From the NCBI GenBank assembly GCA_963727505.1, contig CAVSGP010000004.1, positions 480,001 to 544,000 of the forward strand: a DNA stretch of 64,000 nt, in the 5' to 3' direction. The position numbers and the translations under genes are program-made. Positions 1-12,682 of this stretch are shown here, one piece after another (position 1 is the stretch's first letter; each line of letters opens with the position of its first letter). Under the pieces are notes generated by a model that saw nothing but the letters and a program-made list of their open reading frames with translations, ran no database searches and was not told the origin of the DNA. The DNA is from an uncultured Trueperaceae bacterium (GTDB lineage: Bacteria > Deinococcota > Deinococci > Deinococcales > Trueperaceae).

Positions 1-263
1 CCAGCGCGCGGCCCCAGTCTTGCCACCTCAGCGTTTGCATGGGCGAACGGCGAGCGAACGAGGCCCAATTGCCACCAACTCGATGGAGACCTGGTGCGGC
101 GAAGAGCGATTGGCGCACCAGACGCCGAGCGCATCGGCGTGGCACGGGAGCCACCGTTCGTCGCTTCCGGACCGGCACCACCCTGCCGCCAGCGTCCGTC
201 TCTGGAACGCGAGTCTTCCGTCTGCCATGCGCCACCCGACAGCGGGAGCCGCAGCGGGCGCCT

Positions 264-926
264 TCAATGCGGCCCATACCCAATCGCGCGGCGCACCGTC
301 TCCGGGTCCGCGATCGGGTGCCGCTCCGGCCAATACAACGCGAGCGCCGTAGCCAGCACCAGGTCGTCGTGCGGGTTCTCCCGCCAGTCATTCCCGTACG
401 TGTCATGACCGCGAGCGTTGAGCTTCACCCGGAACGCCAGCATCTCGTCCCTGAGCACCTGAGCCAGCGACAAGTCGCTCTGTACGCGCAACACGCCCTT
501 CTGAAGCGCCACCTGCAGGCGTGACACCAGATCGCGCTTCGGGACGCGATGGTAGCCGTCCGTGGAGGTGGCCGCGTCCCCGCCCGTGATGGTCACAGCC
601 TTCGGCTTGAGGCCCGCCTGCCGCAACAGGTCGACCACGGGCCGGCCGACACCCGTCGCATCCACAATGAGCGTCACATCGCCGTCCCAATAGGTGCGCC
701 CGTCAAGGTGCATCGGCGCTCCCATCAGCCGCTTGATGATCTCCCCCACCCGCTCCACCTGATTGGGGTAGGACGTTCCGAGCGGCAGGCGCTCGAGATG
801 CCCGAGGCGGTACAGTCGCGGCTTGCTCACGTCAGGATGCTCGACCTTCTCCACGACGCTGATGGCCGTGTAGTCGTTGGCCTGGCCGAGGTCAACGCCC
901 ATGAAGAACTTGCGGGAACGCTTCAT
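264..926 (-). CDS. Terminase large subunit, stand-alone C-terminal RNase H-like nuclease domain
   Basis: Motifs GVDLGQANDYTA, DATGVG and HDDLVLATALA; ATG overlaps the stop of the upstream ATPase gene (ATGA) with GGAGG upstream. Confidence 0.8.
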   Translation of the reverse strand: MKRSRKFFMGVDLGQANDYTAISVVEKVEHPDVSKPRLYRLGHLERLPLGTSYPNQVERVGEIIKRLMGAPMHLDGRTYWDGDVTLIVDATGVGRPVVDLLRQAGLKPKAVTITGGDAATSTDGYHRVPKRDLVSRLQVALQKGVLRVQSDLSLAQVLRDEMLAFRVKLNARGHDTYGNDWRENPHDDLVLATALALYWPERHPIADPETVRRAIGYGPH

Positions 927-1681
927 GCCGAGGCCTCCAGGAACGGCTCGAAACCGTCGTCCATCGCGGCTTGCACGAGCTCGTAGTTGAAGACTTGATC
1001 ATCGGCGTCGCTGAAGACGCACATGTACTCCTGCTGATACCGCCAGAGCGGCATGCTGGCCTTCTCCTGCTCGAGGAACGACGCGCTGATGCGGGGAATG
1101 TCGGTTGCCGGCACCTCGGTGCGCGTCCAGCCGGTCGCCTCGCTCCACAGCTCCCAGAAGTGCCGAAGCTTGCCCCACGGCGTGCTCATCAGGACCATGC
1201 GGCCGTTGGAGACGGCGAGCATGGGCCGCATCGCGGCGTGAATATCGTCTTCCACCCAGGCGGCCTCATCCTCCACGATGAGCGTCGGAGCGGAGAAGCC
1301 GCGAATGGTGGCGTCCGAGCCCGGGAGGGCGGCCACGCGTCCGCCGTTCCTCACCGTCCAGGAGAGCTTGTTGTCCTCCGAGAGGTCGGGCTTGCGGGGG
1401 AGCAGCTCGGCGAACTCCTTGACCTTCCGGAACAGCTCGCTGCTCTGCCGCTGCGACGGGCTCACGATGAGCGTCAGACTCTTCGGGACGTAAAGACTGG
1501 TATGTAGACCTAGCACCGCGGCGAGGGTACTCTTGCCGCCCTGCCGCGTGACATTGATGAGGTCGCGCTTGCTGTCGCTCGTGAGCACCTTCCGCTGCCA
1601 CGGGTCGAGCTTGAGCCCGAGCACTTCCTCAGCGAACGCCGCGCGATCCAGCGCGTACCTGAAGTCACTCGCTAGGCTCAT
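923..1681 (-). CDS. Terminase large subunit, stand-alone N-terminal ATPase domain (Terminase_6N-like)
   Basis: LDPWQ adenine-binding motif, Walker A TRQGGKS, Walker B LIVEDEAA, coupling motif MSTP; ends after QEYMCVF. Confidence 0.88.
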   Translation of the reverse strand: MSLASDFRYALDRAAFAEEVLGLKLDPWQRKVLTSDSKRDLINVTRQGGKSTLAAVLGLHTSLYVPKSLTLIVSPSQRQSSELFRKVKEFAELLPRKPDLSEDNKLSWTVRNGGRVAALPGSDATIRGFSAPTLIVEDEAAWVEDDIHAAMRPMLAVSNGRMVLMSTPWGKLRHFWELWSEATGWTRTEVPATDIPRISASFLEQEKASMPLWRYQQEYMCVFSDADDQVFNYELVQAAMDDGFEPFLEASA

Positions 1682-2147
1682 GGTTCTCCAGCGCGTGCAT
1701 GACCGCCACGCGCGCCTCCGGGAACGGCTGAAGGGCGCCCATCAGGTCCGCCCGGAGCGCGATCCACTGGTTGCTCACCGTGATGTTGACGGTCGTGCCG
1801 GTCTGCAGCTCACCAAGCATCTTCGCGAGCAACTCGAGATTGCTCCTAGCCTCCTTGATGGCCAGCAGCGCGGTCTTATGGTCGCCGGCGCTCTTGCTCT
1901 TCGCGAGGATGCCCTCCGCCTCGCTCTGCAGGCCCCGCACCTTCGCCAACAGGTCATCGGCGTTCGTGTTCGCCGCGGTCGGCGCGCCCGCCATCTCCGC
2001 CACCATGCGGTCCTTGTGCCTGTGCACGGCGCTCTTGCTGAGCCTGAATGCCTCCGCCACCTGCCGGACGGGCATGCCCCTGGCGAGCGCCTCCTCGACC
2101 TCCCTGCGCTTCGGATGCGTCGTGATGGTCGTTTGGCTCGCGCTCAC
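1665..2147 (-). CDS. Putative terminase small subunit (N-terminal HTH plus helical oligomerisation region)
   Basis: HTH MPVRQVAEAFRLSKSAVHRH; lies directly upstream of and overlaps terL; GTG start at 2147 overlaps the previous stop. Confidence 0.65.
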   Translation of the reverse strand: MSASQTTITTHPKRREVEEALARGMPVRQVAEAFRLSKSAVHRHKDRMVAEMAGAPTAANTNADDLLAKVRGLQSEAEGILAKSKSAGDHKTALLAIKEARSNLELLAKMLGELQTGTTVNITVSNQWIALRADLMGALQPFPEARVAVMHALENHEPSE

Positions 2148-2280
2148 GCCTGCCACTCCACACGCAGCTCCTCGAGCGCGACGGGGCTCACGTCACGCCC
2201 GCCATTAACGCCCGAAACGCGGCGTACAAATGACCATCCAACAGCCACCCCGCCGCACGAAGCTTCCGACGCAGCCTCAC
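2144..2280 (-). other. Two chained micro-ORFs (2188-2280, 30 aa; 2144-2191, 15 aa) or one frameshifted small gene
   Basis: Translated by hand as VRLRRKLRAAGWLLDGHLYAAFRALMAGVT* and VSPVALEELRVEWQA*; each is joined to its neighbours by a GTGA overlap. Confidence 0.35.
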
Positions 2281-2915
2281 GCCAACTCCTCCTCCGGATC
2301 CACGTCCGGGGAAAACAGTCCGGCCGTGTTCCGAATCGCCGCCAAAGCCCTGAAGCGCCCACCGAAATCATGCGAGAGCCACACCGGCACATTGGAGTTC
2401 CCCCGCTGCAACGGCTCAACGTCCGCCCCGACAACCCCGCGCGCCAGCTGCTCATTCGCGTCGCCGCCATGCTTACCCGCCAACCGCACAGCCGCCGACG
2501 TGGCACGGTGAAACTCCCGATTAGCCCGCTCACTCAAGTGCTTCGACAACGTCACCGCGCGCCGCACCGACGCGTCAGCCGCCTCCATCACCGCGTACCA
2601 CTGCGCCTCAGCCTCCCGATAAGCAACCGACCCCGCAGCGACCTCCGCCAGCTCCCGCTCGTCCTCCGCGACTGACTCCAGCCCGGCGAGCTCCGCCTCG
2701 ACCTCCGCGATCTCCTCGCGATGCTGCGCCAGCATGGACTCGACCGCATCCCGACGGGCCCGCAGGTCCGCGACCTCGTCGATGTCCACGCCACCGGACT
2801 TCGCCTCCCGATACTCGCGGTCGCGCTTCGCAAGCAACGCTTCCAACCGCGGCTCATCCGAACGCAGCGCGTCCAGCGTCTCGCTCGTGCTCTTGAGTTC
2901 CGTCTTCGTGCTCAC
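2277..2915 (-). CDS. Hypothetical coiled-coil protein (212 aa)
   Basis: GTG start (VSTKTELK) overlapping the upstream stop, GGAGG upstream; E/A/L/R-rich heptad pattern. Confidence 0.65.
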   Translation of the reverse strand: MSTKTELKSTSETLDALRSDEPRLEALLAKRDREYREAKSGGVDIDEVADLRARRDAVESMLAQHREEIAEVEAELAGLESVAEDERELAEVAAGSVAYREAEAQWYAVMEAADASVRRAVTLSKHLSERANREFHRATSAAVRLAGKHGGDANEQLARGVVGADVEPLQRGNSNVPVWLSHDFGGRFRALAAIRNTAGLFSPDVDPEEELA

Positions 2916-3076
2916 GGCTCCACCTCCAGAAAGTTGTTGCTCTCCAGGTACGCGTTGACTTTCTCCGAGGTCTTCCCTCGAAGCGCCTGCAGCTCTTCCG
3001 CCGTCGCCCTCCTCGACTTCCACTGGTAGCCCTTGGCCTTCGGCTCGCTCCGCTCGTCCTTCTGCTGGTCGCTCAT
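2912..3076 (-). CDS. Small hypothetical protein (54 aa, MSDQQKDERSEPKAKGYQWK...)
   Basis: Not in the ORF track; GGGAGGAAG RBS before the ATG; stop overlaps the next GTG. Confidence 0.6.
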   Translation of the reverse strand: MSDQQKDERSEPKAKGYQWKSRRATAEELQALRGKTSEKVNAYLESNNFLEVEP

Positions 3077-3154
3077 GCTTCCTCCCAAAGAAAATGGCCC
3101 GATCTCTGCGACCGGGCCACCAGCGGCTTCTACAGTCCCAAGCGTACATTCGCG

Positions 3155-3577
3155 CTAACTCGCGCTAACGCCGTACTTCCGGCGCAACCGCTCGACCTCC
3201 GCCTCGGGCACCAGCCAGCCCGAACGGTTATCGCCCCGCCGGCCCTTCCGAGCGTCGATCAAGCCCTCTCGGCACTGCCACGTAAGCGTCGAGTACGGCA
3301 GGCCCGTCAACTCCTGGACCCCCTCGAGCGTGTACTCCCTCGGCGCGGCCGGCGCCCGCTGCCAGGACGGCGTGTAAGCCCGCTCACGAGGCGACACGAA
3401 GCTCGGATGGGCACTGCGTCGCGCGGGCCCCGAGGGGCGGCCGTAGAGCACCCTGACCGCCTCTGAGGGGCCATCATCCGCCGATACCATCCAGACTTCG
3501 CAGGCGTCACAGTATAGCGGCGCTCGCGTCGGGGTGGATGCCCCCTGCCCGCACTCAGGGCACACGTACCGGTTCAC
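3155..3577 (-). CDS. Zinc-ribbon plus excisionase/MerR-like HTH protein
   Basis: CPEC...CDAC at the N-terminus; C-terminal YTLEGVQELTGLPYSTLTWQCREGLI...WLVPEAEVERL; GTG overlaps the resolvase stop. Confidence 0.65.
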   Translation of the reverse strand: MNRYVCPECGQGASTPTRAPLYCDACEVWMVSADDGPSEAVRVLYGRPSGPARRSAHPSFVSPRERAYTPSWQRAPAAPREYTLEGVQELTGLPYSTLTWQCREGLIDARKGRRGDNRSGWLVPEAEVERLRRKYGVSAS

Positions 3578-3897
3578 TTCCAACCCCCAGAGCGCGCCAG
3601 GAGCTCTAAGAGGTCCGCGAGTCTCAGCACGGCGAACATCTGCGACTTCGAGCCGCGCCGTGACTCCACCAGCACGACCCCGTCCGTGCCCTCGGGTGGC
3701 GTCAGGAACTCCGCTAGCTTGGCTCTCGTCTTCACCTGCGCGCGCATGTTGCCCACGAGTACGTCGACCGTCTCGGAGTGCCCCAGCGACCGGCCATCGC
3801 TTCCGCGAGCTCTGACCGCCGGCAGGCCAGCCTCGGACGCGGCCCGAACCACCATCCGCTCGCCTCGATCGCCCTTCCTTTTCGACGGGTGAGCCAT
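3574..3897 (-). CDS. Hjc-like Holliday junction resolvase (PD-(D/E)xK)
   Basis: SKRKGDRGER N-terminal motif, VDVLV and QVKTR. Confidence 0.75.
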   Translation of the reverse strand: MAHPSKRKGDRGERMVVRAASEAGLPAVRARGSDGRSLGHSETVDVLVGNMRAQVKTRAKLAEFLTPPEGTDGVVLVESRRGSKSQMFAVLRLADLLELLARSGGWK

Positions 3898-4196
3898 CAA
3901 GCCCACCGGCCTTCGCGCACTATTCGCACACTGGCAGCACCAGGCGAGCATGACCGCAAGCGCCAACATGCGCGCCTGACGCCACTATTCGCCAGCTCTG
4001 CCTGAGGGGTTCGACAGACTAGTAGTCTGTCCGAGCCTTCGTCCCGCTGGACTGTCGACGTCCCACCTCTTGGCCCGAAGCGCGCCAGCCGACGGAAGCT
4101 AGTCCCACTCGGCGCCGCTGAGGACGCGATATTCGCGCCCTTTGGCTCTCCACCGTCCCACAAACAAGAGCCCACGCACTCTCGTCCAACGGTCAT
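3897..4196 (-). CDS. Hypothetical protein
   Basis: No recognisable motif; supported only by coupling at both ends (ATGA with the helicase stop, TGATG with the resolvase start). Confidence 0.35.
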   Translation of the reverse strand: MTVGRECVGSCLWDGGEPKGANIASSAAPSGTSFRRLARFGPRGGTSTVQRDEGSDRLLVCRTPQAELANSGVRRACWRLRSCSPGAASVRIVREGRWA

Positions 4197-5419
4197 GCGC
4201 TGTGCTCCTGAATGAGACTACGCAGGCGCGCCCTATCTTCAGTGGTGGCGCGATCCTTCGAGAAGATGGCGGTGAGTTCGTCCTGGGCGTCGGTTCCTTG
4301 GAACTCGCCAGCTATCCATTTCTTGTGGAGGTTCTTGACTTCCTCTGGAGTATCCCCATTCACAGCGTTCACAGGGGGGTTTGGTGTGAATGCCTGTGAA
4401 TGAGAGGGGTCTGTGCCGTTCACAGGGGTTTGCGCTGTCTCTGTCGCATCTTCTAGCACGCTGTGAACAAGGTGAACGATAGAGTAGTTGCCTTTGTCGT
4501 CACTGGCGAGCATGCCTTCGTTGCGCATGCGGATGAGAAGGTGGCGTGTGCTGTCGCGTTTGAGTGTTGCGGCTTCGGCGATTTCCTTTGGAGTGAGGCC
4601 TTCCGGGGCTTCCTCTAGAGCCCGGAGGATGGCTCTGCGTTCTTGCGAGAGGCTCCATTCGCGCGCAGAGCCGAGGACTTGCCAGAGCCCGGTGTGATTG
4701 TCGAATTGGAGGGCGAGCTCTCGGTCCTCGACATCTCTGCCGGTGATGTGCATGGTGGCGTCGGCGTCGCCGCGGGTTCGTTTGATGACGATCATTCCGT
4801 CTAGAGGTCCGGTGATGCCGTAGCTGCCGGATATCTCCTCGAAGGGATCGGCTCCTTGTGACTTCCGTGTGTGGTGGACGAGGAGGATGCATATGTCGAA
4901 CTCTTTTGTGAGCGCTTGGAGTTCTGAGACCATCCTGCTGTCGCCGCTATATAGGTCTTCGCTCTTGATGCGTTGGCCGCGGATTCGGACGAGCGTGTCG
5001 ATCGCGATGACTTTGGTGCTGGGGTGGTCTTGGATCCATTTGCGTAGTGCCTGTATGAGCCCGCGGTCCAGGCCAGGTGCTTCGGTGAGCATGTGGAAGG
5101 TGGTTGGCCAGCCGGTTTCGTCGGCTCCGAGGAATTGCAGCCGGGTTCGGAGTCGCTGGCGTGTGTCCTCGAGCGCTAGGTACAGGACGCCTGCAGGCTC
5201 TACTGGGATCTTCCCGAAGGCGAGTCCGCCTGCGGCGACGCTGAGGAGGAGGGCGAGGACCCACCAGCTCTTGCCTGTCTTTGGTGGGGCGGCGAGAAGC
5301 CAGAGGCCGTAGGCGATGACGTCGGGCACGACCCATTGCTGGGGTGGTATCTCCATGTCGCGGAGGTCGTTGGCGGTGAACGTATGGAGGGTCGGCGGGA
5401 GGGAGCGGGGGCTTGGCAT
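4193..5419 (-). CDS. AAA_25 / RSF1010 RepA-type replicative helicase with C-terminal winged HTH
   Basis: Walker A AAPPKTGKSW, VLYLALED, Walker B VIAIDTL, LLVHHTRK; HTH LTPKEIAEAATLKRDSTRHLLIRM. Confidence 0.85.
   Translation of the reverse strand: MPSPRSLPPTLHTFTANDLRDMEIPPQQWVVPDVIAYGLWLLAAPPKTGKSWWVLALLLSVAAGGLAFGKIPVEPAGVLYLALEDTRQRLRTRLQFLGADETGWPTTFHMLTEAPGLDRGLIQALRKWIQDHPSTKVIAIDTLVRIRGQRIKSEDLYSGDSRMVSELQALTKEFDICILLVHHTRKSQGADPFEEISGSYGITGPLDGMIVIKRTRGDADATMHITGRDVEDRELALQFDNHTGLWQVLGSAREWSLSQERRAILRALEEAPEGLTPKEIAEAATLKRDSTRHLLIRMRNEGMLASDDKGNYSIVHLVHSVLEDATETAQTPVNGTDPSHSQAFTPNPPVNAVNGDTPEEVKNLHKKWIAGEFQGTDAQDELTAIFSKDRATTEDRARLRSLIQEHSA
4358..4477. repeat. Cluster of seven TTCAC(AG)/(CT)GTGAA repeats in both orientations; putative iteron origin
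   Basis: TTCACAG at 4359, 4368 and 4419; GTGAA cores at 4386, 4396, 4463 and 4472. Confidence 0.6.
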
Positions 5420-5772
5420 CAGATGTCCTCGCGGTCGGCCCAGCGGAGCATTCGTATTCGTGCCTCGAGGCCTCCGGAGAGCGCGTCCTCGATCAGCTCC
5501 CGCGCCCTGGTCTTGGCGAAGTGGCTGAGCTGAAGCCTGCCGGACTCCAAGGTCTTCTGCAGCCGCTCAATCTTTGCCCGGTCGTCGTCGTTGAGGGCGT
5601 GCGCCTTGGCGTAGGCGATGCCGAACAATGCCCAGCCCAGCCCAATCTGTTCGTGCTCGTTGAAGCTGTCACGGTTGGCGGCGTCGCGGAGGTACTCCAG
5701 ATCGACTTGTCGTGCTAGAGTCTTCCCGTACCCGTCGGTGCCGCGCCCCGCCTGCCAGCGGGGCTCTTTCAT
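5419..5772 (-). CDS. Hypothetical helical protein upstream of the helicase
   Basis: 117 aa ORF coupled to xis (ATGA) and to the helicase (TGATG). Confidence 0.6.
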   Translation of the reverse strand: MKEPRWQAGRGTDGYGKTLARQVDLEYLRDAANRDSFNEHEQIGLGWALFGIAYAKAHALNDDDRAKIERLQKTLESGRLQLSHFAKTRARELIEDALSGGLEARIRMLRWADREDI

Positions 5773-6044
5773 GCCGGACCCTCTGCTGGCTCTTCCCTCC
5801 AGCCTCCAGGCAGTGCTTGGCCGCCGGATTCAATGAAGGCTCTCACGTCCTCTGGGCGGAATCTGACGTTGCGGCCGATCTTGACGCAGGGCAACAGGCG
5901 ACGGCGTGCATAGTCGTAGACGCTGCTGGGCGGGAGGTCGAGGATTTCGGCGACGTCTCTGCCGGAAAGCAAGTGCATGATGCCTGCGGTGCGGTGCCGT
6001 TCCTGTTGCGCATGCGTGTCGCGTCCCTCAGATACATTGGTCAT
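5769..6044 (-). CDS. Excisionase/AlpA-like HTH_17 DNA-binding protein
   Basis: LLSGRDVAEILDLPPSSVYDYARRRLLPCVKIGRNVRFRPEDV; AAGGAGG RBS. Confidence 0.85.
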   Translation of the reverse strand: MTNVSEGRDTHAQQERHRTAGIMHLLSGRDVAEILDLPPSSVYDYARRRLLPCVKIGRNVRFRPEDVRAFIESGGQALPGGWREEPAEGPA

Positions 6045-6151
6045 GCAAACCCTCCTTGGGTTTGTGCTTGGGTGGAGGCGCTGTCACTCTTGGCGGAGAA
6101 GGCGCCTCCATCTGCTATTGGTTTCGGGCTGTTCGTGTCTGGCCGCAGCAA
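6041..6151 (-). CDS. Putative 36-aa leader ORF of the element operon
   Basis: TAAGGAGGA then TTG at 6151; MLRPDTNSPKPIADGGAFSAKSDSASTQAQTQGGFA*; stop overlaps the xis ATG. Confidence 0.4.
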   Translation of the reverse strand: MLRPDTNSPKPIADGGAFSAKSDSASTQAQTQGGFA

Positions 6152-6162
6152 GCCGTCCTCCT

Positions 6163-6201
6163 TATGGTCTCACCATAGGGAGAAGAGCGGCCCGGTGTCA
6201 A
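6163..6201 (-). promoter_or_regulatory. Sigma70-type promoter of the element operon with an overlapping palindromic operator candidate
   Basis: TTGACA (6201-6196), 18 nt spacer, TATGGT (6177-6172); inverted repeat TATGGT-ctc-ACCATA at 6163-6177. Confidence 0.55.
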
Positions 6202-6259
6202 TCGCAATAAGGGCGTCAGGGACGTGAAAAAGGGGTGTTTCTGCACCACCCGAAGAGGT

Positions 6260-7018
6260 TCATACCTTTTTTGATGGCCGGCCAGAGTCGCGCTTTGCCC
6301 GAGGAATGTCCAGCAACGTGGATGCGGCGTTCAAGGCTTGATTCACCGTTGCCTTGGACTTGTGCATCAGCACCTGCAACTCGCGGACGTCCACGCCACA
6401 GGTCTGGTACAGGACAAACCATTCGATATTGCGGCCGGTCGTGGAGGTCGTCAACGGCAGAGCGAGCCCTTCCTCCGCCAGGAAGGCCTCAAACCGGTCC
6501 ATGTATGCAGTCACTTGGCGTTCAAGTTCCTTCAAGGCTTGAGCCCTGAAGTTGTCGCGACCCTCGTTCCAAGCGAGCCGGTTCCATCCGACGATCGGCT
6601 CCGGCTTGAAGTCATACAGATCGTCTCTCGTGCGGTGGACGGCTATCCTTGGCAGTTCGCCCCAAGATTTGCCGGCAATGGCCGGTTCCTCGATCCAGAG
6701 GCACAGACTATCTAGGGCCTGGTCGCGGACCCAGCGGGCGTCGATGTTGTGCGCTTCGAGCGCGCGCGCGAGCGCAGCGGCAAACGCTAGAAAGCCTGCT
6801 TGGCCTTCCAATATGACTGCTACGTTCTCGTAGATAAGCCCTGGCCTTGAGAACTCCGCCCGCGTTAGGCCCGAAGCGCCTTCAAGAAAGCGCCTCAACT
6901 CTTTGAGCGGATCTCCAGCAAGGTCTCTCAGTACGTGAGGCGCGTGGCGCTCGACCCTTTCAAGAAACGTCGCCCGCGCGAATACCAGCTCGGCCTCGCT
7001 AACCGGTTCAGAGCTCAT
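6260..7018 (-). CDS. Hypothetical protein with C-terminal HTH-like segment and basic GRP tail; putative element regulator
   Basis: IEWFVLYQTCGVDVRELQVLMHKSKATVNQAL...RDSGRPSKKV; lower GC; last gene before the att site. Confidence 0.6.
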   Translation of the reverse strand: MSSEPVSEAELVFARATFLERVERHAPHVLRDLAGDPLKELRRFLEGASGLTRAEFSRPGLIYENVAVILEGQAGFLAFAAALARALEAHNIDARWVRDQALDSLCLWIEEPAIAGKSWGELPRIAVHRTRDDLYDFKPEPIVGWNRLAWNEGRDNFRAQALKELERQVTAYMDRFEAFLAEEGLALPLTTSTTGRNIEWFVLYQTCGVDVRELQVLMHKSKATVNQALNAASTLLDIPRAKRDSGRPSKKV

Positions 7019-7157
7019 GATCTTGTGTGCGAGTAGTGTGCCAACTCGGCGCCCTCTGCCATACTGACGCGAGCATAGCATACGGCCAGCCCTTTTCCCT
7101 TACGTCTCGGGCGCACTTCTCGGCCTATTCGTCCTCACCGGCCATACCTTTTAGCGT

Positions 7158-7212
7158 TTCAGGGTCATGTGACCGCAAGGTCGTGGGGGTTCAAGTCCCC
7201 CCTTCGGCACCA
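7158..7212 (+). other. att site: 3' half of tRNA-Leu(CAG) from the anticodon loop to CCA
   Basis: TTCAGGGTCATG-TGACCGCAAGGTCGT (long variable arm)-GGGGGTTCAAGTCCCCC (T arm)-CTTCGGCACCA; no acceptor 5' strand or D arm upstream. Confidence 0.88.
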
Positions 7213-7216
7213 ATCG

Positions 7217-7260
7217 AATCAAGGGAAGGGCCCCGCGACGGCGGGGCCCTTCCCTTGATT
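7217..7260. terminator. Perfect 20-bp hairpin, probable bidirectional terminator between the tRNA locus and glyS
   Basis: AATCAAGGGAAGGGCCCCGC-gacg-GCGGGGCCCTTCCCTTGATT. Confidence 0.8.
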
Positions 7261-10297: not shown

Positions 10298-10474
10298 AGA
10301 AGCTCCTCGAGGCGTACGCAGCGTTCCAGTTCGGGTCCAGCGCGGGGCAAACGTAACGAACGCCCTTTCTGGACTCACATCAGGCGGGTACTATACCATC
10401 ATGATTCGGCGGCAAAAGGCGAGCAGCATGGGGCCGAATCGACCGACGCCTCCTTCTCCCCTTCGGAGGGCACC

Positions 10475-12682
10475 TTGAACAGGTACGACGATCGAGCGAG
10501 GTTGGTCTTCCACTTCGCCCGCGAGGAGGGCTCCAAGCTCGGGCACGCCATGATCGGACCCGAGCACTTGCTTCTGGGCCTGATGCGTGAGGGGGGGACC
10601 GCCAGCAAGGTGCTGGCCGAGTTCGGCGCGACGCTGGAGGGCTTCCGGAGGCAGGTCGAGGAGATGGTGGGGCGCGGGGACGGCCTGCCCCGCAACGAGA
10701 CCGCAGCCATCACGCCCCGCGCGCGGCGCGTCATGGAGCTGGCGGGCTCGGAGGCGCGCAGCCTCGGGAGCAACGTCATCGCCACCGAGCACATCCTGCT
10801 CGGCATCATCCGGGAAGGGGACGGCGTCGCCTACCGTATCCTCCAGAACCTCACGCGGGACGTCGACACCGTGCGCTGGCGTATCCTGGCCGCCGCCGAC
10901 CCGAAGAACCAGACGGAGACGGTCAACACCCCCTTCCTCGACGAGTACGCCCGCGACCTCACCAAGGAGGCGCGCGAGGACAAGCTCGACCCGGTCATCG
11001 GCCGCACCGAGGAGATCCGCCGCGTCATCCAGATCCTGACGCGCCGCACCAAGAACAACCCGGTGCTCATCGGTGAACCAGGGGTCGGCAAGACCGCCAT
11101 CGTCGAAGGGCTCGCCCAGGCCATCGTCGAGGGGCGCGTACCGCCCAACCTCACCAACGTGCGGGTGCTGTCGATCGACCTCAGCAACATCGTGGCCGGC
11201 ACCAAGTACCGCGGCGAGTTCGAGGAGCGGCTGCGGCAGGTCATCGAGGAGCTGCGCAACGCCAAGGTCGTGGCCTTCATCGACGAGCTGCACACGCTCG
11301 TGGGCGCCGGCGGGGCCGAGGGAACGCTCGACGCCGCGAACATCCTGAAGCCTCCCCTGTCGCGGGGCGAGGTACAGGTGATCGGCGCCACCACGACTGG
11401 CGAGTACCACAGGTACATCGAGAAGGATGCGGCCCTGGAAAGGCGCTTCCAGCCCGTCATCGTGTTGGAGCCCTCCCCCGAGGAGTCGCTGGAGATCCTG
11501 GAGGGCCTGCGCGAGAAGTACGAGTCCCACCACGGCGTGATCATCCCGCAGGAGATGCTGCGGATGTCCGTGCGCTACGGCGAGCGCAGCTTGCCGGGCC
11601 GCAACTTCCCCGACAAGGCGATCGATCTCATCGACGAGGCCGCCGCCCGCACGCGGCTCAACAAGTCGCTCGGCTTCCCGGTGCTCGAGGAGGAGGACGG
11701 CACACCCGTCGTCACCCGCGAGGACCTCGAGGCGGTCGTGAACTCCTGGGGGGGCATCTACGTCGACGAGGCCGATTCCGAGAAGCTGGCCCACATCGAG
11801 GAGAACCTGGAGCGCAGCGTGGTCGGTCAGAGCAAGGCGATCAAGGCGCTCGCCTCGGCACTGCGGCGCGCGCGGGTCGGCCTCGGCGGCCGGACCCGGG
11901 TGGCCGCCTCGTTCATGTTCGTCGGTCCGTCGGGCGTGGGCAAGACCTTCCTGGCCAAGCAGCTCGCCCTCGAGCTCTTCGGCAGCGAGCGGGCGCTGGT
12001 GCGTCTCGACATGTCCGAGTTCCAGGAGTCCCACAGCATCTCCAAGCTCATCGGGGCACCTCCCGGCTACGTCGGCCACGAGCAGGGCGGTCGGCTGACC
12101 GAGGCGGTGCGCCGCCAGCCGTTCAGCGTGGTGCTGCTCGACGAGATCGAGAAGGCGCACGCCGACATCTACAACACCTTCCTGCAGGTGCTCGACGACG
12201 GCCGCCTCACCGACGGCCTGGGCCGCACGGTCGATTTCCGTCGCGTCATCCTGATCATGACGAGCAACACCGGCTTCAACCGGGGCTCCACCATCGGCTT
12301 CCAGGAGGAGGGCAAGCAGGACTCCAACTCGCCGCTGAAGGGCATCTTCAGCCCGGAGTTCCTGGACCGCCTCGACGAGGTCATCGTGTTCGAGACCTTC
12401 GACCGCGCGGGCATCGTCGTGATCACCGAGCAGATGCTCGAGGACATCCGGAGCGAGCTCGCCGGCCGCGACATCCACGTCACCTTCTCCAAGGAGGTCG
12501 CGGAGTTCCTCGTCGACAAGCTGCCGCGCGGAGAGAGCGCCCGCCCCATGCGCGGCATCATCCGCGAGCACATCGAGGACCCGCTCTCCCTGGAGATCCT
12601 GCAGCACGGCTCCGAGGAGCCCCTGCTCGTCACCGTCGAAGAGGGCCGCGTGGTCTTCGCGCGACCCGTACCGATGGTCTGA
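10475..12682 (+). CDS. clpC: ATP-dependent Clp protease ATPase subunit, ClpC/ClpA type
   Basis: Double Clp-N repeats, GEPGVGKT and GPSGVGKT Walker A motifs, IGF loop (STIGFQ); TTG start with GGAGGG RBS. Confidence 0.92.

Follow-up and report, generated by a model that had tools for sequence, protein, structure and literature searches.

A tRNA-Leu-integrated element of an uncultured Trueperaceae bacterium with a two-gene large terminase and no recognised virion genes, a probable phage satellite

Can a mobile element that encodes a DNA-packaging motor, and no recognisable shell to be filled by it, be a phage satellite? This question is raised by the left end of a 64,000-nt stretch of DNA (hereafter the window) from an uncultured Trueperaceae bacterium, which corresponds to positions 480001-544000 of contig C4 (CAVSGP010000004.1) of the source genome (assembly GCA_963727505.1, labelled G000). 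An earlier inspection of the window, made without database searches (the sequence-only reading), had placed there a satellite-like element, integrated into a tRNA-Leu gene, which would supply its own packaging motor and hijack the procapsids of a helper phage. The present analysis supports that proposal, and neither of the two checks designed to overturn it did so. On balance, we favour the view that the element is a phage satellite supplying its own terminase and borrowing procapsids, tails and lysis, because its layout is bounded and recurs in other genomes, its enzymes are intact, free circular relatives exist, and no shell gene was found.

The source genome comprises 3.26 Mb in 15 contigs, is 97.4% complete, and has a G+C content of approximately 70%. 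The region around the left edge of the window was examined as a 20-kb segment (L001, C4:468001-488000; adding 12,000 to a window coordinate gives that of L001). Extension to the left, as recommended by the sequence-only reading, reached both an integrase gene and an intact tRNA-Leu(CAG) gene, detected with ARAGORN at C4 474377-474463, 5.5 kb from the window. The 3′ end of this tRNA gene is repeated perfectly, over 56 nt and in direct orientation, at positions 7158-7213 of the window. Since the spacing of the two copies is 12,749 bp, the element is precisely bounded and 12.75 kb long, with 5,536 bp lying beyond the left edge of the window. The previous estimate of about 7 kb was therefore too low, while the description of a gene set on one strand stood for the features listed at that time, all of which lie on the minus strand. 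The attachment (att) sites and the integrase gene are as follows.

L001 6409-6464 (C4 474409-474464), outside the window: attL, the identical 56-nt copy inside the intact tRNA gene
L001 6984-8117, minus strand: tyrosine integrase beside the tRNA gene (Phage_integrase, PF00589, 4.5e-23)
7158-7213, no strand: attR, the original 3′ end of tRNA-Leu(CAG), now displaced, 56 nt

The element thus has the organisation of a tRNA-integrated element of the tyrosine-recombinase type, with a PF00589 integrase adjacent to the tRNA gene and a second copy of the 3′ end of this gene at the opposite end of the element. Its G+C content falls to 0.59 in places, versus approximately 0.70 in the flanks, and it is missing from all nine other genomes of the same genus. 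The right flank consists of a perfect 20-bp hairpin followed by the convergent glyS/glyQ genes. This hairpin (window 7217-7260; two perfectly matching 20-nt arms around a 4-nt loop, directly after attR) is probably a common terminator of tRNA-Leu and the convergent glyS.

The packaging genes occupy the left end of the window. They encode a putative small terminase subunit (TerS) and a large subunit (TerL) composed of separate ATPase (TerL-N) and nuclease (TerL-C) proteins.

1665-2156, minus strand: TerS-like protein, 163 aa, with an N-terminal helix-turn-helix (HTH) and a helical middle region; overlaps the start of TerL-N
923-1681, minus strand: TerL-N, the ATPase half of TerL, 252 aa (PF03237, Terminase_6N, 3.1e-11, above cutoff; phrog_7579, 2.6e-54)
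264-926, minus strand: TerL-C, the RNase-H-like nuclease half of TerL, 220 aa (PF17289, Terminase_6C, 4.2e-5; phrog_27743, 2.4e-34)
1-263, no strand: spacer after TerL-C, from which the element runs on leftwards

Both halves of TerL have intact catalytic motifs. The Walker A and B residues of TerL-N (G49 K50 S51 T52 and D138 E139) do not vary among 32 aligned homologues, the protein of G000 being one of them. TerL-C scores 24 bits against PF17289 (cutoff 22.6) and retains all 22 positions that are highly conserved among 56 sequences, including D12, D18, D89, E161, D187 and D188, acidic residues which we take to be catalytic. TerL is not a single polypeptide in this element, as the start of TerL-C overlaps the stop of TerL-N (ATGA). 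The sequence-only reading had already assigned the ATPase and the nuclease to separate genes, and this two-gene form was found in 74 of the 91 loci examined. The frame offset between the two ORFs in these 74 loci is -1 in 43, +1 in 22 and 0 in nine, and the junctions vary as well, from overlaps of 4 nt, seen in 23 loci, to whole ORFs inserted between the two halves, among them one for an HNH endonuclease. Such varied offsets and junctions argue for a genuine two-gene TerL rather than a sequencing error or one uniform frameshift. Among the inserted ORFs are those of L025 and L075/L079 (84-183 aa) and, at approximately 10,780-12,252 of L078, one for a 385-aa HNH/endonuclease VII-like protein, all located between TerL-N and TerL-C.

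The 163-aa protein fits the description of a small DNA-binding protein that is encoded upstream of TerL and conserved with it. Proteins homologous to it (27-50% identity) are encoded immediately before TerL-N in many related loci, and before TerL in the phages Riverbug and MMP17. Its position, size, HTH and conservation, on which the earlier designation "TerS-like" depends, suggest the role of a TerS; in Atlas, the nearest clusters consist of viral proteins without a name. The closest cultured relatives of the element are Thermus phage Riverbug and Meiothermus phages MMP7/MMP17 (myoviruses, approximately 33-34 kb). TerL-N shares 46% identity with that of Riverbug and 42% with those of MMP7/MMP17, and the respective values for TerL-C and the TerS-like protein are 30-31% and 34-36%. 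In Riverbug, a RusA-like resolvase gene likewise precedes the genes for the HTH protein and TerL, which stand in the same order. In contrast to the element, however, the TerL of these three phages is encoded by a single ORF (415-417 aa), and behind it come genes for the portal, a Mu-F-like protein, a protease, the major head protein and the tail sheath.

No such genes were found in the element. Searches of the whole 12,749 bp against Pfam and PHROGs gave no match to a portal, capsid, protease, adaptor, connector or tail protein for any ORF, and the segment between the att repeats therefore does not constitute a complete tailed prophage, lacking a recognised portal, major capsid or tail gene. 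The previous observation that no portal gene follows TerL now holds for the entire stretch up to the tRNA gene. Likewise, the 5.5 kb left of position 1, where the sequence-only reading had allowed for a virion module, contains only five cargo ORFs and an HTH_3 gene in addition to the integrase gene.

L001 8120-8404, minus strand: HTH_3 gene (HTH_3, 2.8e-5)
L001 8787-11862, plus strand: five cargo ORFs (159, 110, 106, 254 and 215 aa), left of the window

The translations of the cargo ORFs display signal-peptide, lipoprotein or membrane features, and their third-position G+C content is lower. The only family match among them is that of the 106-aa zinc-ribbon membrane protein (phrog_8436, 8e-31), and no PADLOC defence family was matched by any part of the element, the cargo ORFs included.

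The search was also extended to the rest of the genome. The HK97 capsid (PF05065) and portal (PF04860 and PF05133) families gave no match in this 97.4% complete genome, although control genomes do match, and PF03354 matched only the TerL of the element, which is the sole TerL of the genome. Moreover, the portal, Mu-F-like, protease, head, adaptor and sheath proteins of Riverbug/MMP17 have no homologue in G000.

The same layout was found repeatedly in other genomes. Among the 364 genomes of the element's phylum-level group, 13 were matched by a TerL-N profile at E<=1e-30. Eight of these genomes belong to the family of the element itself, with TerL-N ORFs of 204-311 aa (one with an interrupting stop codon), and five to another family, where four ORFs are fused and prophage-like (427-442 aa) and the fifth (339 aa) is cut by a contig end. 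At nine further loci of the element's own family (L007-L009, L172-L176; 44-61% TerL-N identity), TerL-C gives way, within 0.6-3.5 kb, to an HTH gene, an integrase gene or both; a tRNA gene (Thr, Ser or Leu-TAA) comes next at three of the nine. The cargo is entirely missing from L176, which has approximately 600 bp in its place. None of the 50 ORFs scanned in L172-L176, and none of those scanned in L007-L009, matched a virion PHROG. The longest repeats at L172-L176 and L007-L009 are 12-14 nt, and att sites were not definable there. Three genomes of this family contain two diverged terminase elements each: G024 (L007, L008), G362 (L172, L173) and G289 (L174, L175). The contigs of G024 and G014 break 1-2 kb upstream of TerL-N. 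The 20-kb stretches of L174 and L175 have a G+C content of 38-40%, though G289 is of the same family as G000 (70%).

A similar organisation occurs in metagenome-assembled genomes (MAGs) of Chloroflexota and Bacillota (L002-L006). These have a split TerL and the gene order xis, (primase), AAA_25, TerS-like, TerL-N, TerL-C, and no portal or capsid gene was found in them. Downstream of TerL-C, two of the Chloroflexi MAGs encode a protein of 427-483 aa (L002 12698-14149, L003 5778-7061), whose N-terminus is weakly tape-measure-like (TMP_3 9e-7, under the cutoff; phrog_12798 1e-5).

A protein search yielded 1,413 relatives of TerL-N at E<=1e-20, the best 120 of which are all 232-284 aa long. From a metagenome scan, the best 80 of 551 relatives were kept (45-64% TerL-N identity), and these provided 25 loci of at least 6 kb. 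The usual order in the 25 loci is primase/helicase, small ORFs, TerS-like, TerL-N, TerL-C, a few ORFs and integrase. None of their ORFs resembles the labelled virion proteins, and none of 99 further ORFs (>=190 aa) in metagenome loci matches a head or portal PHROG, the lone exception to the absence of virion matches being a weak tail match inside a repeat protein. The capsid-less layout spans metagenome contigs with a G+C content of 0.37-0.66.

Relatives in IMG/VR are more distant (40-53% identity). In this set of 80 loci, TerL is split in 65 and encoded by a single ORF of 427-489 aa in 13, and one or more genes for portal, head or tail proteins are present in 56 loci. The split form consequently belongs to real phages as well, and its use as a satellite marker, which we had considered, was rejected. 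The head and tail proteins of Riverbug/MMP17, used as jackhmmer queries against all fetched loci, were found only in those two phages, apart from a weak case in L014; related phages have differing head modules.

Direct terminal repeats of 32-127 nt are present in seven of 40 whole IMG/VR contigs and in one metagenome contig. Five of the circular contigs, of 9.9-15.2 kb (L012, L019, L056, L088 and L093), contain replication genes and the terminase set, and have no capsid or portal gene. A ParA-type partition gene is present in the capsid-less L012, L088 and L077, accompanied by an integrase gene in L012 and L077, which hints at both plasmid-like and integrated states. Three other circular IMG/VR contigs have a different content. 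L041 (9,929 bp) and L061 (9,773 bp) encode a primase, a portal protein (phrog_533), a major head protein (phrog_267) and a split TerL, with no recognised tail genes; they are capsid-forming elements of very small size within this TerL lineage. L069 (10,321 bp) encodes a primase, a head maturation protease (phrog_80, 8.6e-41) and a split TerL, with no recognised capsid or portal gene, and looks like an intermediate gene set.

A TerL-N tree was built with FastTree from 171 rows, none being left out; it is a quick tree with local supports. G000 falls within a clade of 18 rows (support 99). All six members with a rich genetic context (G000, L007, L008, L009, L107 and the circular L093) are without virion genes, and the remaining 12 rows are short contigs. 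The capsid-less loci of genomes, the circular contigs and this clade answer the second check of the sequence-only reading, which concerned whether homologues always lie within full phages: they do not.

All the features named in the sequence-only reading (the att fragment, HTH-like gene, promoter/operator, xis, helicase with repeats, resolvase, Zn-HTH and coiled-coil proteins, TerS-like protein and TerL halves) are present in the element. Those of its replication, excision and regulatory region are listed below.

6172-6201, minus strand: sigma-70-like promoter with a palindrome over the -10 box (candidate operator), upstream of xis
5769-6044, minus strand: xis, excisionase/AlpA-like HTH_17 protein, 91 aa (PF12728, 6.9e-13; phrog_66, 1.4e-9)
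5419-5772, minus strand: 117-aa protein, translationally coupled to xis and the helicase gene
4193-5419, minus strand: AAA_25 (RepA/DnaB-like) helicase with a C-terminal winged HTH (PF13481, 7.2e-30; HTH_IclR, 8.5e-7)
4359-4472, no strand: iteron-like TTCAC/GTGAA cluster within the 3′ part of the helicase gene
3574-3969, minus strand: Holliday-junction-resolvase-like protein, 131 aa (phrog_244, 1.4e-6)
3155-3583, minus strand: Zn-ribbon (CxxC...CxxC) and HTH_17 protein, 142 aa (PF12728, 1e-3, under cutoff)

The putative promoter (TTGACA-18-TATGGT, 6201-6172) matches the consensus at 10 of 12 positions, and was identified by this match only. The product of xis also matches TIGR01764 (1.1e-5, under the cutoff of that model), and the helicase matches primase/helicase PHROGs. 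The 117-aa protein has no family match in Pfam, PHROGs, NCBIfam or PADLOC. Within the helicase gene, seven of the 28 TTCAC/GTGAA words of the element are clustered in 130 nt, versus a mean of 0.29 per 130 nt (Poisson 2e-8 per window, approximately 98 windows), and one 8-mer is present three times; this cluster is a candidate replication origin. The resolvase-like protein shows a weak match to Hjc (3.5e-4, under cutoff) and none in Pfam. The cysteine pairs of the Zn-ribbon protein are visible in its translation.

Several observations weigh against the proposal that the element is a satellite with its own terminase. No helper phage was found for it in this genome or elsewhere. No excision junction or circle of the element, and no attB or attP joint, was seen in the Logan contigs of four metagenome runs, which are short and of low depth; in the Logan contigs of two sediment runs the depth is 20-55 for the flanks versus 0-1.8 for the element, but these flanks carry many differences and may derive from other strains. 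As regards the genes, the name TerS-like did not stand as a family assignment, since the 163-aa protein matched only HTH families, all under their cutoffs, and neither a TerS family model nor a TerS PHROG. In Riverbug, the gene annotated as TerS lies downstream of TerL, has no family match, and has no homologue in the element, and the AAA_25 helicase of the present copy contains no primase domain. Some relatives are decayed, as shown by the truncated integrase of L172 and the transposases in L173-L175. The terminal repeats of the circular contigs denote a circular or concatemeric template and are not proof of encapsidation. Finally, loci with and without virion genes are intermingled throughout the TerL tree, where starred branches force at least 17 changes. 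The capsid-less state has therefore arisen many times, or TerL has been exchanged with phages as often, and some of the capsid-less loci could be recent phage remnants.

These observations bear on three other explanations. A Riverbug/MMP17-like temperate phage might have lost everything downstream of TerL, leaving an immobile prophage stump with a decaying terminase. The order of the resolvase, HTH protein and TerL genes is that of Riverbug, where the portal, head and tail genes come after TerL; the 65 split and 56 virion-encoding loci of the IMG/VR set, and the visible degradation of L172, L174 and L175, point in the same direction. Such decay is hard to square, however, with the recurring layout and with the conserved catalytic-motif residues kept in both TerL halves. 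Truncation at one and the same point (TerL-C, then integrase) is found at the nine other loci of the family, despite TerL-N identities of only 44-61%, as well as in metagenome contigs of very different G+C content and in the five circular contigs. Moreover, the 56-nt att repeats are free of mismatches, both int and xis are intact, and the TerL-N clade of G000 is without virion genes wherever context exists. We therefore regard a prophage stump as unlikely.

The element may instead be an integrative plasmid or another mobile element which uses its terminase for a different purpose, either as an anti-phage decoy that cuts or mis-packages phage DNA, or for the resolution of its own concatemers. 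The plasmid-like partition genes of L012, L088 and L077 and the lack of an identified helper agree with this view, and passages of two reports describe satellite packaging genes that interfere with helpers (PMC9618062, PMC11417361). On the other hand, the element contains no known defence family, and a complete set of TerS-like protein, ATPase and nuclease is kept in synteny across very divergent elements, as packaging needs. Moreover, in known satellites interference does not preclude self-transfer. A use of the terminase other than for transfer seems to us improbable, if a little less so than a prophage stump. Least probable, and in our opinion very much so, is an autonomous tiny virus with a shell and portal so divergent that they escape recognition. 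Several ORFs do lack a family (those of a 273-aa protein, p273, a 212-aa coiled-coil protein, cc212, the 117-aa protein and the cargo), the IMG/VR pipeline lists the relatives as viral, and the circular contigs L041 and L061 encode a portal and a major head protein within 9.8-9.9 kb. The ORF sizes are nevertheless hard to reconcile with this explanation: the largest unassigned ORF of the element has 273 aa, versus 399-625 aa for the portals of related loci, and the circular 9.9-kb L093 has no ORF above approximately 295 aa except for an 812-aa primase-like one. Furthermore, cc212 is predicted to be a helical hairpin, p273 to be all-helical without strands (with low confidence), and the cargo ORFs are not conserved, as seen in L176.

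If the element is a satellite with its own terminase, its life cycle may be envisaged as follows. It would reside in tRNA-Leu(CAG) until a signal, probably infection by a helper phage, caused the integrase and the HTH_17 excisionase to release it as a circle. The AAA_25 helicase would then load at the iteron-like origin within its own gene, the element would replicate, and the resolvase-like protein would trim branched DNA. The terminase of the element would recognise its DNA and pump it into the procapsids of a helper with a compatible portal, which would also provide tails and lysis. The genomes of the nearest cultured phages (approximately 33 kb) equal about 2.6 element lengths, and concatemer packaging or small capsids would therefore be needed.

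To our knowledge, known satellites either borrow the TerL of a helper, as do phage-inducible chromosomal islands (PICIs), P4, PLE and VEIMEs, or also build capsids of their own, as do the capsid-forming PICIs (cfPICIs). The latter are said to have been described by Alqurainy et al. in 2023. The element resembles cfPICIs in being small and integrated in a tRNA gene or specific site, in combining an integrase and a regulator with a replication module, a putative TerS and its own TerL, and in its presumed dependence on a helper for the missing virion parts. It differs from them in that the cfPICI capsid, adaptor, connector and protease were not found, so that it cannot be counted as a cfPICI; a cfPICI borrows tails only, whereas the element would need procapsids too, and its TerL is encoded by two genes. 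With the classical PICIs, including the SaPIs, it shares int, a xis/AlpA-type regulator, a replication gene near a candidate iteron origin, a putative TerS, the one-strand arrangement, a size of approximately 10-15 kb, and accessory genes adjoining the packaging genes. Unlike a classical PICI, which uses the TerL of its helper, it has its own; in addition, no capsid-morphogenesis (cpm/ppi-type) gene was recognised in it, and its AAA_25 helicase has no primase domain. The psu, delta, sid, alpha (primase) and epsilon-type families of P4-like satellites were not matched, which sets the element apart from that group.

According to the description of SatelliteFinder (PMC10085698), the cfPICI model requires at least nine of 11 core components, including the capsid, head-tail adaptor, connector and prohead protease, with terL as one of the markers separating cfPICI from PICI. 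The PICI core described there consists of integrase, an AlpA/MerR/Stl regulator, a primase-replicase, a capsid-morphogenesis gene and TerS, and excludes tail, holin and cfPICI markers. Of these components, the element has the integrase and HTH_17 protein and, by its presumed role, TerS; it has no primase domain and no recognised morphogenesis gene, and TerL is present.

Other reports describe partly similar elements. In NitKor-E1 of Ca. Nitrosopumilus koreensis AR1, TerS and TerL are the sole virus-like genes and lie beside a tyrosine integrase gene (Krupovic et al. 2019; PMC6563490). The passages on this element call the terminase enigmatic and likely a relic, describe no family, and state that a terminase complex is "so far" not known in non-viral mobile elements. 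NitKor-E1 is thus also integrated and has TerS, TerL and a tyrosine integrase, but is archaeal and, in these passages, carries unrelated genes (VapBC, a restriction endonuclease). The marine VEIMEs and, judging from papers that cite them, the PICMIs are likewise small, integrative, with virion-size or circular DNA, and encode a primase/helicase, AlpA and TerS. However, the relevant passages on VEIMEs report TerS and "motor-like ATPases" and expect the large terminase from the helper (PMC9618062), whereas the present element has its own TerL. The mycobacterial EPIP satellites have TerS, adaptors and a tape measure protein, the last of which is reported to be unusual and may be compared with the weakly tape-measure-like proteins of L002 and L003; no TerL is listed for them in the relevant passages (PMC12822802). 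In the literature covered by full-text search (main texts in part, supplements excluded; including PMC13669383, PMC11389934 and 10.1101/2025.02.15.638363), no description of capsid-less TerS+TerL elements or of a two-gene TerL was found, and the element and its relatives are apparently a widespread, undescribed group of small elements.

It is conceivable, although we lean slightly against it, that this group as a whole is an unnamed, cross-phylum class of satellites placed between PICIs and cfPICIs, with a full motor and borrowing only empty procapsids, tails and lysis. Within such a class, separation of the portal-docking ATPase from the nuclease could allow elements to swap one half for new helpers, and the circular genomes of 9.8-10.3 kb, with portal and capsid or with the protease only, would form a graded series from phage to minimal satellite. 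If this is true, widespread elements of 8-15 kb with a complete terminase and no shell would represent a third satellite strategy, in which the satellite itself chooses the DNA to be cut and pumped, and contests with its helper only for empty procapsids. This would bear on the classing of virome contigs that contain TerL, on estimates of gene transfer in soil and sediment bacteria, and on the evolution of portal-terminase compatibility. The present copy is a good test case, because it is intact and precisely bounded, and its two-gene TerL would be a natural system for studying the cooperation of ATPase and nuclease without a covalent link. In Riverbug, the HTH protein encoded directly upstream of TerL (L011 8517-8999, compared with 10355-10759) is the one conserved with the satellites; the TerS annotation of this phage may be on the wrong gene.

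Three further ORFs of the element lie upstream of the TerS-like gene or at the att-proximal end.

6260-7081, minus strand: p273, ORF of 273 aa (252 aa in the stored version), all-alpha and putatively regulatory, at the att-proximal end
2912-3088, minus strand: 58-aa ORF, with a 4-nt overlap with the start of the coiled-coil gene
2277-2915, minus strand: cc212, coiled-coil protein, 212 aa, with a conserved position immediately before TerS in the closest relatives

Searches of Pfam, PHROGs, NCBIfam and PADLOC gave no family for p273, and a single homologue (42% identity) was found. Its AlphaFold2 model is all-helical, without strands, and of low confidence (pLDDT 48.6), too poor for a fold search, and sequence matches in PDB were at chance level only. 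The 58-aa ORF, considered a probable gene on account of its overlap with the cc212 gene, has no family match.

The coiled-coil protein had been given a length of 290 aa in the sequence-only reading. This was corrected to 212 aa, because five homologues span 212-222 aa. The AlphaFold2 model of cc212 (pLDDT 85.9) is a long helical hairpin formed by helices 2-40 and 45-149, and a Foldseek search with it gave no matches at E<=0.001 in BFVD or PDB. An Atlas lead from cc212 to Psu of P4 (score 0.90) was not borne out, the fold search having returned no PDB match at that threshold. The homologues of cc212 are encoded directly upstream of TerS in L092 and L093, which places the protein in the conserved core of the clade; that it acts as a capsid scaffold or size factor would be only a guess.

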